Source: Candidatus Aldehydirespiratoraceae bacterium
GTDB lineage: Bacteria > Actinomycetota > Acidimicrobiia > Acidimicrobiales > Aldehydirespiratoraceae
Direction: 5' to 3'
Assembly: GCA_965198365.1 (NCBI GenBank)
Contig: OZ240617.1
Coordinates: 195,938 to 259,937 of the forward strand
DNA length: 64,000 nucleotides
In this document: positions 44,114 to 52,282 of the stretch, in pieces
How positions within the stretch are numbered: position 1 is the first letter of the stretch
How the letters are laid out: each line of letters opens with the position of its first letter
Position numbers and translations under genes: made by a program
The notes under the pieces: model-generated
Database searches by the model: none
Told to the model about the DNA's origin: nothing
What the model saw: the letters and a program-made list of their open reading frames with translations, nothing else

Positions 44114-47100
44114 GTGACCCTGATCCCGACGGTCGCCCATGGGCGGGCCACGGTCACCGTGGACGGCGTGCCGGCTGAGAGCGGCGTCGAGAGCGCCGCC
44201 GTGCATCTCGGCTCGGGCTCGACCTCGACAGCGGTTCTCGTGACCGCCGAGGACGGCACGTCGCAGACCTACACCGTCGCCGTCTCGCGCGGGTCGCGTA
44301 CCGAGAACGTCGAGGTCGGTGTGGGCGAGTTCACGCTGTCGTGCCCATCGCAAGTGGTGGAGGGGAACACCCTCACATGCACGCTGACCAACACCGGCAG
44401 CGATGCCGCGCCCTGGCCGGTCGTCGCCATCATCCACAGCTCCGCCGACGACAACCGAGCGATCATCACCGAGGACTCGGTGATCGCCTCCACCGCGTCC
44501 TCCTACGGAGTCGACCTCGAGTTCGCCGAGTCTCAGACCCCTGCGCGGGAGGACTACAAGTACGGATACGGGGAGCTGTTCTCCGGGGGCTCGATGTCGG
44601 TGTACACCGTCTACGGGTACGAGAAGTTCGACTGGTCCGGAGAGGCCGCCGCCAGCGCATCCCGCACTGTCAGCATCGACATCAAGTCGGACGACGAAGA
44701 CGAGGATGAGGACGGCGAGGTCTTCTTCGTGGCGCTGACCGCCAGCGACTCGACCAGCCTGTCGGGCCTGGTCGACAACAAGGCGCCCGTCCTCATCGTC
44801 GACCCGCCGCCGACGGCACCCGCCGCCCCGACGGTCACCTCGGTCGTGCCGGGCGTGCAGTCGCTGACCGTCGAGTGGACCGAGCCCGACGACAGCGGCG
44901 GAAGGGAGGTCACGTCCTACGACGTGGGATACATCGAGACCAGCGCCGACGAGGCGGTCGACAACAACTGGACCGTCGAGCAGGCCTGGACCTCCGGCGA
45001 CGGCGACCTGAGCCACACGATCACGGGACTCGACAGCGGAACCCAGTACGACGTGCGGATGCGGGCGACCAACTCGGAGGGCGCGGGTGACTGGTCGGCC
45101 GCCGCCACGGGGACTCCCCCCACGCTGCCCGGGACTCCGACCATCGACAAGTTGACCGCGGCCCGCACGACGCTGACCGTCGAGTGGAGCGCGCCCGCGG
45201 ACGACGGCGGAGCGGAGGTCACGTCCTACGACGCGCGCCACATCGAGACCAGCGCCGACGAGGCGGTCGAGATCAACTGGACCGTCGAGCAGGCCTGGAC
45301 CTCAGGCGACGGCGACCTGAGCCACACGATCACGGGACTCGACAGCGGAACCCAGTACGACGTGGAGGTGCGGGCGGTCAACTCGGTGGGCGCGGGTGAC
45401 TGGTCGGCGGACGAGACCGCGACCACGTCCCTGTCCAGCGATGCGACCCTCAGCGCGCTGGCGTTGACCGGCTCAACCCTGTACCCGTCCTTCGCGAGCG
45501 GCACTACGTCGTACAAGGCGTCGACGGGGCACGCGCACGGGCTGGTCACTGTGGCTGCCACCACCTCCGACACCGATGCCTCGGTGGCCTATTTGGACGG
45601 GAACGGCGACTCGCTGACCGACGCCGACAGCGCGGCCGGGTTGCAGGTGGCCCTGTCGGTGGGGGCCAACGTGATCAAGGTGCAGGTCGCCGCCGCGGAC
45701 GGTGTCACGACCAAGACCTACACGATCCGCGTCACCCGGGCCGCCGAGGACCTGTCGCTGAGCCCGCCGGCGAGCGATCCAGCGGCGGTCGGACAGTCGG
45801 CGGCGGTCTACACGGTGACCTTCCGGGGCCGCTGGACCAGCAACGCCACGCCGGGCGGGCGTCCCGGCGGCGCGCACTTCTCGCGCCTGATCGGCGCGGT
45901 CCACAACGCGGGCGCGACCTTCCTGGAGAGCGGCGGCACTGCCGGCGCCGGGGTGGAGTCCATGGCCGAGACCGGGGGGTACTCGACGCTGAGCAGCGAG
46001 GTGAGCGAGCAGATCAACGCCGATCCCCCCGGCGCGCTGTCGGTCCTGTCGGGCAGCACCGACTTCATCGGCCCGACCGCGACCCGGACCCTGAGCAACG
46101 TCGAGGTCACCACCGGGCACCCGCGGATCACCCTGACCACGATGATCGCGCCGAGCCCGGACTGGTTCGTCGGCGTGGCCGGGCTGCTGCTGCTCGACGC
46201 CCAGGACGGGTGGGTCGAGTCGCTCACCGTGAACCTGTACCCGTGGGACGCCGGCACCGAGGACGGCACCGGATTCTCGCTGATCAACCCCGCCACGGTC
46301 CGCCAGGGGGTCATCACCAGCATCAGCGGCACCGGCCGGTTCTCGGCCGAACGGATCGCGACGCTGACCCTCACCCGCGGGTCGGTCTCGCCCCGGTTCC
46401 CCGCGACGGAGGGCGGCGAGCGCACCATCGCGGAGAACACGCCGCCGAACCGCGACATCGGCACCCCTGTAGCGGCTGAGGATCCCGACGGCGGGAGTCT
46501 GACGTACACGCTCAGCGGCCCCGGCGCCGGGCTCTTCGACATCGTCGCGTCGTCGGGCCAGTTGCGGACCAAGGGCGCCCTCGACCATGAGGCGGCGTCG
46601 CAGCACTCTGTGACCGTGAACGTTGAGGATCCCCACGGCCTCAGCGACAGCATCGCCGTGACGGTGACGGTGGCCGATGTCAATGATCCGAGCGTGGTGG
46701 TGATCATGGCTGACGACGCGGGCTACGAGCTGTTCGGCGCGTACGGCAGCACCCAGTACAGCACCCCCCGGCTCGACGCGATCGCGGCGAGCGGCGTTCG
46801 CTTCGACAACGCGTTCTCCAAACCGCTGTGCACACCGAGCCGGGTCGCCATCATGACGGGCCAGAGCAACGTCCGCAACTACAGCAACTTCGGCACGATG
46901 CAGCCAGGCCAGTACACCTTCGCCGACCTGTTCAGCGCCGCGGGCTACGCCACCGCCATCGCCGGCAAATGGCAGCTACAGGGACTCGAGGGCTCAGCCG
47001 TTGAGGGGGAGAGTGCCGGAGAGGGATTCGACACCAACTGCCTCTGGAATACAGCGCTGACGGACACCGACAAACTTTACTGGAACCCGAGTGTGGAGTG

Positions 47101-52282: not shown

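Follow-up and report, generated by a model that had tools for sequence, protein, structure and literature searches.

A type I sulfatase domain embedded in a predicted SLH-anchored cadherin/fn3/spondin giant protein of an acidimicrobial bacterium

Surface enzymes bearing SLH modules are known from Gram-positive bacteria, among them the xylanases, pullulanases and amylases of Thermoanaerobacterium, Clostridium and Paenibacillus; we know of no characterized SLH-anchored sulfatase. Here we analyze a 64,000-nucleotide (nt) stretch, called the window throughout, of contig OZ240617.1 (assembly GCA_965198365.1, forward-strand positions 195,938 to 259,937) from a Candidatus Aldehydirespiratoraceae bacterium, in which a complete type I (S1) sulfatase domain lies inside a giant gene built largely of cadherin-like repeats. 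The encoded protein shares with the Gram-positive SLH exo-enzymes the general plan of a C-terminal SLH anchor, a spacer with Ig-like modules and a surface-displayed catalytic module, but those enzymes are glycoside hydrolases and are without animal-type cadherin and spondin domains. The characterized S1 sulfatases PsS1_19B (6PSM), BT1636 (7AN1), human ARSA (1N2K) and BT4656 (5G2V) have the same fold, the CxPxR signature, the metal-binding Asp/Asp/Asp/Asn set and the residues LysA, HisB and LysB. They differ in having a histidine at the HisA position (GKWHL), are only 22 to 27% identical to the window domain, and none of them sits inside a cadherin/fn3/SLH giant. Stand-alone GKWQ-type S1 sulfatases of about 445 amino acids (aa) have the same invariant residues and the same glutamine at HisA as the window domain but are single-domain secreted enzymes, and none is characterized.

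A homopolymeric tract in the 5' part of the giant gene invites a second comparison. Poly-G and poly-C contingency loci occur in Neisseria, Campylobacter and Haemophilus, and have in common a run of at least 10 Gs or Cs, near the 5' end of the coding sequence for a surface protein, that is polymorphic between in-frame and out-of-frame lengths. Those loci sit in host-associated pathogens and commensals, unlike the present tract, which belongs to a sponge symbiont and varies in length between strains and sequencing runs; to our knowledge, none has been reported for sponge mutualists or Acidimicrobiia. Among sponge symbionts, the Poriferisodalaceae (TK06, Acidimicrobiia) are described as significantly enriched in cadherin, fn3, Calx-beta and LRR proteins (PMC11706023), which involves the same organism group, the same domain classes and the same presumed contact with the host matrix as the window gene. 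That article gives counts of domain enrichment, with sulfatases, embedded enzyme cassettes and poly-G tracts unmentioned there. A second article reads the enrichment of sulfatases in sponge microbiomes as a sign that sulfated host matrix polysaccharides are used (PMC5735121, citing Slaby et al. 2017). Sequence relationships identify the bearer of the window as a sponge-symbiotic member of the Acidimicrobiia with kinship to 'Candidatus Poriferisodalis': NCBI assigns the name 'Candidatus Poriferisodalis sp.' to homologues of the gene that follows the giant gene, and the public runs holding window DNA include sponge metagenomes and metatranscriptomes.

As assembled, the 9-kb giant gene comprises a short upstream open reading frame (ORF1) and a giant one (ORF2) in different frames (Table 1); domain positions below are ORF2 residues unless stated, and fused numbering refers to the conceptual ORF1+ORF2 protein. 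The Pfam Sulfatase model PF00884 matches residues 859 to 1169 over its full length (model positions 1 to 301 of 301) with 151.9 bits against a cutoff of 25 (E = 3e-44), the SGSH_C subdomain matches residues 1118 to 1254, and a phmmer search against the PDB reaches 1e-32. The motifs VVVIMADDAGYE, CTPSR (residues 906 to 910) and FIADNGTH are present, so that the claim of a sequence-only reading, made earlier from the letters of the window and its open reading frames, that a complete type I sulfatase with C-T-P-S-R, FIADNGTH and a Cys codon at 46829 to 46831 lies inside the giant ORF is borne out in full. An AlphaFold2 model of the domain is confident (predicted local-distance difference test [pLDDT] score of 90.3, predicted template modeling [pTM] score of 0.92), and the 50 top-ranked Foldseek matches listed are all S1 sulfatases with template modeling (TM) scores of about 0.72, most of them carbohydrate-active. 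They include the kappa-carrabiose sulfatase PsS1_19B, the mucin 3S-Gal sulfatase BT1636, human ARSA, an S1_16 enzyme and BT4656.

The expectation that the catalytic residues would be intact held for the formylglycine (FGly) cysteine, the metal ligands, LysA, HisB and LysB but not for HisA, which is replaced by Gln954. The window domain keeps the Asp-Asp pair, the Asp-Asn pair, Cys-x-Pro-x-Arg, LysA, HisB and LysB, none of which varies across an alignment of 71 family members. At the HisA position, the 120 closest homologues have glutamine in 114 cases, arginine in 1 and histidine in none, indicating that this glutamine is a conserved trait of an uncharacterized subfamily and not the decay of one copy. 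The substitution being subfamily-wide, the chemistry is probably not fully canonical and may differ from that of other S1 enzymes.

The remaining architecture put forward by the sequence-only reading, with two fn3 domains and a spondin-like domain ahead of a sulfatase amid cadherin repeats, about 11 later units and a poly-Gly spacer, was recovered with Pfam and NCBIfam (Table 1). The PF06468 match has 120.5 bits (cutoff, 24) over model positions 1 to 173 of 194, and the NCBIfam spondin domain NF038123 scores 83.2 bits against a cutoff of 40. Pfam finds a second PF12733 match in ORF2, and NCBIfam also matches a tandem-95 repeat. Cadherin PF00028 scores 184 bits (E = 6e-55), accompanied by Big_9, Cadherin_4 and Cadherin_5 (PF00028/PF17803/PF17892 matches), and the repeat ends carry the motifs DVNEAP, NVNEKP and DVDEPP, which are of calcium type and would suggest calcium binding. 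Repeats were mapped by comparing 120-aa segments of the protein with one another and by a DNA repeat search, a whole-protein self-BLAST having returned the identity match only. By this map, the SWM domain is followed by five cadherin-like repeats, one Ig-like unit, two Cadherin+Big_9 pairs and one Cadherin, after which the poly-Gly spacer begins. The array of five contains a two-repeat duplication of 612 nt (48627 to 49853; 96% identity), and the Cadherin+Big_9 pairs form a tandem duplication of 579 nt (50170 to 51327; 99 to 100% identity). The copy number of both duplications may be unstable, or collapsed or expanded in assemblies, and relatives vary in repeat number.

The two SLH-like modules proposed for the C terminus are supported by PF00395, which scores 32.8 bits against a cutoff of 20.8 on the last 170 aa alone (E = 7e-8, two stretches) and 20.3 bits, just below the cutoff, in a whole-protein scan; both modules carry TRAE, at residues 2637 and 2699. 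Three tandem SLH modules form the usual pseudo-trimer, whose partner is a pyruvylated wall polymer (csaB). A start resembling that of a third module (FGDVE, 51785) runs into glycine runs where relatives have SLH module 3, and there is no csaB-like gene within the window.

The ORF starting at 44114 is not the complete protein. Coding begins at 43351, and ORF1 supplies the real N terminus: a signal-peptide-like segment (MKLRLPSSRLVTRSVLLIVLAGATAFF..., residues 1 to 34, nt 43351 to 43452), a beta-rich module without family assignment that is paralogous to ORF2 residues 63 to 187, and a PF12733-type domain that starts at 43990 and continues in the frame of ORF2. Removal of one G from the homopolymer between the two frames yields a single fused protein of 2,976 aa, and the orthologue P0145 is one unbroken protein, 88% identical to fused residues 1 to 1116. 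ORF1 also contains, at 43754 to 43831, a Thr-rich variable-number tandem repeat of 21 nt encoding GATTTT(S/T) in 3.7 copies, and run X3 has a variant that is shorter by 42 nt, or two units.

Table 1. Features of the giant gene and its immediate surroundings in the window
Feature	Position	Strand	Basis or remark
Divergent intergenic region, giant gene (+) / secreted fn3-like gene (-)	43117..43350	.	AT-rich, short direct repeats
ORF1, real N-terminal part of the giant protein	43351..44103	+	ATG start, 250 aa
G14 homopolymer, sets ORF1 and ORF2 out of frame	44026..44039	+	Sequence reading
ORF2, giant ORF	44114..52282	+	GTG start, 2,722 aa, uninterrupted
fn3, two domains	44849..45427	+	ORF2 residues 246-438; Pfam; about 80% mutual identity
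PF12733 cadherin-like beta-sandwich	45449..45739	+	ORF2 residues 446-542; Pfam
Spondin_N (Spond_N, PF06468)	45803..46327	+	ORF2 residues 564-738; Pfam, E = 1.2e-34
Cadherin repeat cad0 of the A backbone	46334..46687	+	Ends ...VTVADVN immediately 5' of the sulfatase
B-derived segment (sulfatase, SWM, first cadherin repeats)	46660..49270	+	blastn, 92.2% identity to the B genes of L082 and L084
S1 sulfatase, N- and C-subdomains	46688..47881	+	ORF2 residues 859-1256
D867/D868	46712-46717	+	Metal-ligand Asp-Asp
FGly Cys906	46829-46831	+	Codon TGC
R910	46841-46843	+	Arg of CxPxR
K952 (LysA)	46967-46969	+	Aligned to invariant column
Q954, HisA position	46973-46975	+	GKWQL
H1039 (HisB)	47228-47230	+	Aligned to invariant column
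D1105/N1106	47426-47431	+	Metal-ligand Asp-Asn
K1125 (LysB)	47486-47488	+	Aligned to invariant column
SWM_repeat (PF13753) Ig-like domain	47996..48244	+	ORF2 residues 1295-1377; Pfam
Five cadherin-like repeats, about 100-105 aa each	48332..49966	+	Segment self-comparison, DNA repeats
Ig-like unit, weak SCAB-Ig/AIR9-type match (E = 0.003)	49964..50170	+	88-94% identical to A and B relatives
(Cadherin + Big_9) twice, then one Cadherin	50171..51622	+	Pfam and repeat searches
Poly-Gly spacer with duplicated 'SVEPVEPPELVDGSEMFGDVE' linker	51623..51868	+	Sequence reading
Two SLH modules, each with TRAE and a GC...YCP cysteine pair	51905..52279	+	PF00395
35-nt tandem repeat, 3.5 copies (CTGACCGAGTCATACCCGCGCCCGACGGCGGGGGA)	52279..52400	.	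Starts at the stop codon of the giant gene
Secreted GH16-fold protein	52467..54233	-	588 aa; motif EINIFE replacing ExDxxE
Paralogue of the preceding, 43% identity	54230..56002	-	590 aa; motif VINLFE, nucleophile Glu missing

The position of the sulfatase can be traced to two neighboring genes of related bacteria. Gene A is represented by the three closest proteins (P0143, P0144 and P0145), which match the window protein from fused residue 1 or 255 to 1116 at 88 to 91% identity and in the C-terminal part at 78 to 94%, and which are without fused residues 1113 to 1767. In these orthologues, '...SIAVTVTVADVN' leads straight into the next cadherin repeat, 'EAPAVSGPP...', whereas the window continues with 'DPSVVVIMADD...'. 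Gene B lies directly downstream of A in two relatives (L082 and L084) and encodes, in order, a signal peptide, poly-G, cadherin, sulfatase, SGSH_C, SWM, cadherins, Ig, Cadherin/Big_9, poly-Gly and three SLH modules. Its copies encode 1,577 aa (L082, 12972 to 17891) and 1,639 aa (L084, 16427 to 21160; P0265), and P0266, on a third genome, has 1,071 aa.

The window protein changes allegiance at the sulfatase. Its sulfatase, SWM domain and next cadherin repeat are 75 to 91% identical to B, while A has neither sulfatase nor SWM and reaches about 50% in the cadherin repeat; the cadherin repeat 5' of the sulfatase (cad0), by comparison, is 88 to 91% identical to A and only 39 to 48% identical to B. 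At the nucleotide level, A matches the window up to 46686 (blastn, 94.5% identity). Because the match to B begins at 46660, the 5' crossover falls within a 27-nt overlap of A and B (46660 to 46686), at the cadherin repeat boundary 'DVN'. The 3' breakpoint lies somewhere in 48630 to 49270, a stretch where A and B are alike. These alignments show the window allele to be, on sequence evidence, a recombinant of two neighboring paralogues, in which a 2.0- to 2.6-kb piece of B recombined into A. The composition of the gene was also examined for a recent foreign insertion of the sulfatase, which was rejected, the G+C content at third codon positions (GC3) running from 0.83 to 0.98 along the gene and standing at 0.88 in the sulfatase, with no break.

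No second sulfatase or separate B gene is present in the window, where the GH16-like genes come directly after the giant gene. Both paralogues resemble the window gene in preceding GH16-like genes; B also has a sulfatase, SGSH_C, SWM and first cadherin repeat that are 88 to 91% identical in protein sequence, the poly-Gly and SLH C terminus and a poly-G tract behind the signal peptide, and A has the poly-G site. They differ from it in that A is without sulfatase and SWM, its next cadherin repeat following right after '...VTVADVN', and in that B is a separate, shorter protein with its own signal peptide, its own pre-sulfatase cadherin and three SLH modules, and without the fn3/PF12733/Spondin_N half.

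We consider it rather probable that the locus encodes, when in frame, a Sec-exported, SLH-anchored mosaic protein of about 2,976 aa, recombined from A and B, that binds and desulfates sponge matrix glycans and whose production depends on the G tract. A wall-tethered enzyme on a long stalk acting on sulfated glycans is the most economical reading of the domain order and fits the sponge-symbiont origin; it is plausible, by extension, that host glycans are desulfated at the cell surface. The fused order would be signal peptide, unassigned module, PF12733, unassigned module, two fn3 domains, PF12733, Spondin_N, cadherin, sulfatase, SWM, about 11 cadherin and Ig units, poly-Gly and two SLH modules. 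After export by Sec, the SLH pair would hold the C terminus on the cell wall, the repeat array would serve as the stalk, and the animal-like domains of the N-terminal part would bind the sponge matrix. Cys906 would be matured to formylglycine, allowing the sulfatase to strip sulfate esters from host matrix glycans for feeding or matrix remodeling, possibly together with the two secreted GH16-fold proteins, and changes in the G tract would turn production on or off.

Several observations weigh against this proposal. The gene is out of frame behind its signal peptide as assembled, as are two of its three orthologues, and the RNA contigs (from two sponge metatranscriptomes, at very low depth) cover ORF1 and the Spondin region only, leaving the sulfatase uncovered. 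The catalytic HisA is Gln954 (GKWQL), as opposed to GKWHL in three aligned PDB sequences, and the nearest solved sulfatases in the Foldseek alignments are merely 22 to 27% identical. Neither a formylglycine-generating enzyme (FGE, PF03781) nor a radical-SAM/SPASM protein (anaerobic sulfatase-maturating enzyme, anSME) occurs among the roughly 47 ORFs of the window scanned with Pfam, in agreement with what the unaided reading had reported, or in the 6- to 10-kb flanks of three relatives (L082, L083 and L084). Two SLH modules are present here versus three in relatives, and both GH16-like neighbors are without the canonical ExDxxE motif.

The anatomy of the G tract resembles that of a slipped-strand contingency locus, although its lengths are known from assembler contigs only, in which homopolymers are error-prone. 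A long homopolymer stands near the 5' end of the coding sequence for a surface protein, and public runs and relatives contain variants that keep the frame as well as variants that break it. A search of the window for G10 returned 9 matches against 0.37 expected by chance, all from two such runs. The homologous tract is G10 and in frame in L082 (P0145), G11 and out of frame in L083, and G15 and out of frame in L084. Logan contigs differ from the gga+G14 of the window by +6, -5 and -7 nt, the -7 variant being in frame; the contigs with six additional Gs come from runs X1 and X2, have identical flanks and share the out-of-frame phase of the window. Across strains and runs, the tract lengths thus span 10, 11, 12, 15, 17 and 23 nt, with differences of up to 13 nt. 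The B genes carry a G12 or G13 tract directly behind the signal peptide, which keeps the frame in L082 but not in L084. The length of the tract in the giant gene would determine whether the protein is made, and its variability is either true phase variation or a product of miscalled homopolymer lengths in the assemblies.

If the lengths are miscalled, the frameshift is an error of long-read metagenome assembly, and the gene is intact, constitutive and without phase variation. This explanation is possible but doubtful. The names of the relatives' contigs (ctgNNN_28x_c) hint, by inference from the naming, at an assembler weak on homopolymers, every out-of-frame length is 1 nt from an in-frame one, and the 8.2-kb ORF behind the tract is otherwise free of defects. 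Tract differences of up to 13 nt are, however, far beyond calling error, the six additional Gs appear within identical flanks in both X1 and X2, and a tract of the same kind stands behind the signal peptide of B in both phases.

A second long homopolymer lies at 43064 to 43076 (G13 on the plus strand, C13 on the gene strand), 24 nt upstream of the likely ATG (43040) of the divergent secreted fn3-like gene (41443 to 43116, minus strand). Run X2 shows a +1 variant of this tract, and other variants lack 42 or 118 nt around it. The tract may serve as another phase-variable switch, one working through the 5' untranslated region or promoter.

Neither of the two GH16-like genes downstream has a Pfam or NCBIfam match, even at E values up to 10, and the upstream ORFs likewise gave nothing significant with these libraries. 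A profile of 21 homologues run against the PDB gives 15 matches, all of them GH16 (best E = 1.2e-4), and an AlphaFold2 model of the 588-aa protein (pLDDT, 74) retrieves only GH16 structures among the Foldseek top 50 (best E = 1e-10; TM to target, 0.53 to 0.59), laminarinases ranking first, followed by GH16 enzymes of the mucin endo-beta-galactosidase type. The GH16 fold that had been proposed for the two genes is therefore upheld, but the suggested link to agarases, carrageenases and porphyranases is not, given these nearest neighbors and the altered motifs (Table 1). Both proteins, which are putative enzymes, have signal-like N termini, and in relatives their genes show synteny with A and B. 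Both also have an N-terminal beta-rich domain of about 200 aa without a match, and they belong to a family of about 22 unnamed proteins found mostly in Poriferisodalis-like genomes. At the corresponding position, L083 has three tandem genes of like size (586, 585 and 556 aa), the likeness being one of size and position only.

An alternative is that the system, GH16 genes included, targets algal or dietary sulfated galactans (agar, carrageenan or porphyran) and not the host matrix. The adjacency of GH16-fold genes speaks for it, as does the presence of kappa- and iota-carrageenan sulfatases (PsS1_19B, Ps i-CgsB and ZgCgsA) among the structural neighbors of the sulfatase. Human ARSA and mucin O-glycan sulfatases are neighbors just as near, however, and the GH16-like proteins, with their non-canonical motifs, are nearest to laminarinases and endo-beta-galactosidases. 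Moreover, the organism and its relatives are sponge symbionts, which makes host matrix glycans the likelier substrate, and we regard an algal target as unlikely.

Decay of the gene would also account for its broken frame. In that case, the gene would be a recently inactivated pseudogene of this strain, and the sulfatase mosaic an evolutionary by-product without current function, as might be read from the out-of-frame G14, from three of four assembled alleles being split and from a related cadherin-sulfatase gene that is interrupted by an IS3 element. We find this quite improbable for a sequence that runs for 8,169 nt without a further stop or frameshift, has a GC3 of uniformly about 0.9 and keeps all canonical catalytic residues except HisA, which is glutamine throughout the subfamily; in addition, in-frame alleles exist, and transcript-like contigs fall over both ORF1 and ORF2.

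The glutamine at HisA, together with the lack of a maturase gene within the window and the location among adhesion-type domains, could likewise be taken to mean that the sulfatase module is a non-catalytic, lectin-like binder of sulfated glycans. Against a mere binder stands the invariance of the FGly cysteine, the arginine, both metal pairs, both lysines and HisB across the 71 family members, which include stand-alone proteins of about 445 aa without adhesion domains, and the glutamine is a trait of the subfamily, not local decay; we give this alternative little credence. Finally, A and B have repeat segments that are 88 to 94% identical and prone to confuse assemblers, but a chimeric misassembly of these repeat-rich tandem genes was rejected as highly improbable, since junction-specific unitigs and k-mers (46654 to 46689, joining cad0 to the sulfatase) occur in runs X1, X2 and X3 at strain-level depths of 30, 34 and 9, where they coexist with the A-type and B-type junctions of co-resident strains, since two switches (A to B to A) would be needed and since the window is free of leftover A or B fragments.

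The anchored-enzyme arrangement extends well beyond this gene. The best 120 relatives of the whole ORF are mosaic proteins of 1.5 to 4.7 thousand aa composed of like repeat types; about half contain a Peptidase_S8 subtilase with a P-domain, about 20 an arylsulfotransferase-like domain (PF14269) and some GSDH or SLH, and a sulfatase is listed in none of these 120. The giant gene upstream of P0145 (L082, 1 to 5530) combines Arylsulfotrans (PF05935/PF14269) with cadherin and SLH. Judging from these domain combinations, a common scaffold seems to carry various enzymes, the arylsulfotransferase being possibly a second one acting on sulfate esters.

The closest homologues of the sulfatase are mostly stand-alone proteins of about 445 aa, encoded in Bryobacterales, Planctomycetota, Verrucomicrobiota and other metagenome-assembled genomes (46 to 58% identity across the entire catalytic domain), which stop at '...RPRW', precisely where the fused forms enter SWM; in 10 of 10 fused relatives with a readable post-sulfatase region, SWM follows the sulfatase. 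Several fragments have the same cadherin-sulfatase joint, 'VTVTDVNDPS-VV(L/V)IMADD'. Among GTDB representatives, a 3,536-aa Dehalococcoidia protein consists of S8 peptidase, P-domain, sulfatase, three SWM domains and fn3, and a 1,463-aa Latescibacteria protein of sulfatase, SWM, Calx-beta, fn3 and cadherin.

A search of representative sequences with the cadherin, sulfatase and SWM portion, counting only rows whose best stretch spans the cassette (the others being multi-cadherin proteins), places the whole cassette in at least 22 clusters at the 50% identity level, with proteins of 640 to 2,721 aa and one cluster with a 5,370-aa member. In the five clusters scanned, the partners are SLH; Cadherin/Big_9; polysaccharide deacetylase with fn3; LRR with Calx-beta and fn3; and four PF12733 domains with LRR. 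The cassette-bearing clusters have no protein name in any source, and no description of cadherin- or SLH-embedded sulfatases was found in the literature searched, whose coverage was incomplete. The sequence-only reading was thus right to see an unusual fusion, which is real, but not a one-off. A related cadherin-sulfatase-SWM gene on a 2.6-Mb contig, P0011 (L001, 10001 to 15755), is truncated by an IS3-family insertion (HTH_Tnp_1 and rve), with a second copy of the element nearby.

More speculatively, sponge-symbiotic Acidimicrobiia, and possibly co-resident Dehalococcoidia and Latescibacteria, might possess a variable 'enzyme-on-a-stalk' system, in which tandem giant genes swap cassettes (sulfatase-SWM, subtilase with P-domain, arylsulfotransferase, GSDH and deacetylase) at cadherin boundaries and each gene has a hypermutable poly-G on/off switch close behind its signal peptide. 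This would amount to pathogen-style phase and mosaic variation by a mutualist tuning how it binds and edits the sulfated matrix of its host, a possibility that we put forward only tentatively.

The giant gene forms part of a wider cluster of secreted and surface proteins that includes CARDB, the fn3-like protein, a 1,061-aa cadherin protein and a subtilase. The intergenic region between the fn3-like gene and the giant gene is presumed to be a shared promoter region. At the other end, the 35-nt array separates the giant gene from the convergent GH16-like gene, and each unit holds a GC-rich inverted repeat, such that the array may form stacked terminator-like hairpins. Farther downstream (56487 to 61096), a 486-aa ORF without assignment overlaps the start of the 1,061-aa cadherin protein by 37 nt and may be part of another split gene; the subtilase (Peptidase_S8; 61977 to 63947) lies on the opposite strand to this pair.

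The giant ORF has a GC3 of 0.90, followed by the fn3-like gene upstream with 0.86 and ORF1 with 0.81, compared with 0.6 to 0.8 in most other genes of the window, and overall G+C content is 0.65 to 0.73 in 41443 to 52282 versus 0.55 to 0.62 in the flanks. The contrast points to a distinct codon usage or a foreign origin of the surface-protein block. Just left of the cluster (33180 to 38719) are a Fic/DOC protein, a helix-turn-helix regulator, an N6/N4 DNA methylase and several unmatched ORFs, which may constitute a mobile or defense-type islet. The left 38 kb encode housekeeping and metabolic functions, among them WS/DGAT, DUF3105, a luciferase-like oxidoreductase and a class I Glu/Gln-tRNA synthetase, a content that fits an actinobacterium. 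A TauD/TfdA-family dioxygenase (8236 to 9282), 35 kb from the giant gene, stands beside an amidohydrolase and a molybdoenzyme of the CO-dehydrogenase/xanthine-dehydrogenase type, and may act on sulfonates or sulfate esters.

The ingredients of the locus are known: S1 sulfatases, SLH-anchored exo-enzymes, eukaryotic-like repeat proteins of sponge symbionts and homopolymer contingency loci. New in combination, within the literature searched, is a conserved sulfatase-SWM cassette (550 aa here) on giant cadherin/fn3/spondin scaffolds, as are the shuffling of that cassette between tandem paralogues, the subfamily-wide replacement of HisA by glutamine and the poly-G tracts behind signal peptides. 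This natural His-to-Gln variant of the S1 active site is of mechanistic interest in itself. Work on sponge microbiomes has reported enrichments of sulfatases and of animal-like adhesion domains separately, and this locus unites both in one predicted wall-anchored polypeptide. It shows a route by which they are combined, through recombination of paralogues at repeat boundaries, and the same sulfatase-SWM cassette is built into many giant scaffolds of uncultured bacteria. If the proposed function is true, the protein would offer a molecular handle on how extracellular symbionts grip and process the matrix of their host.

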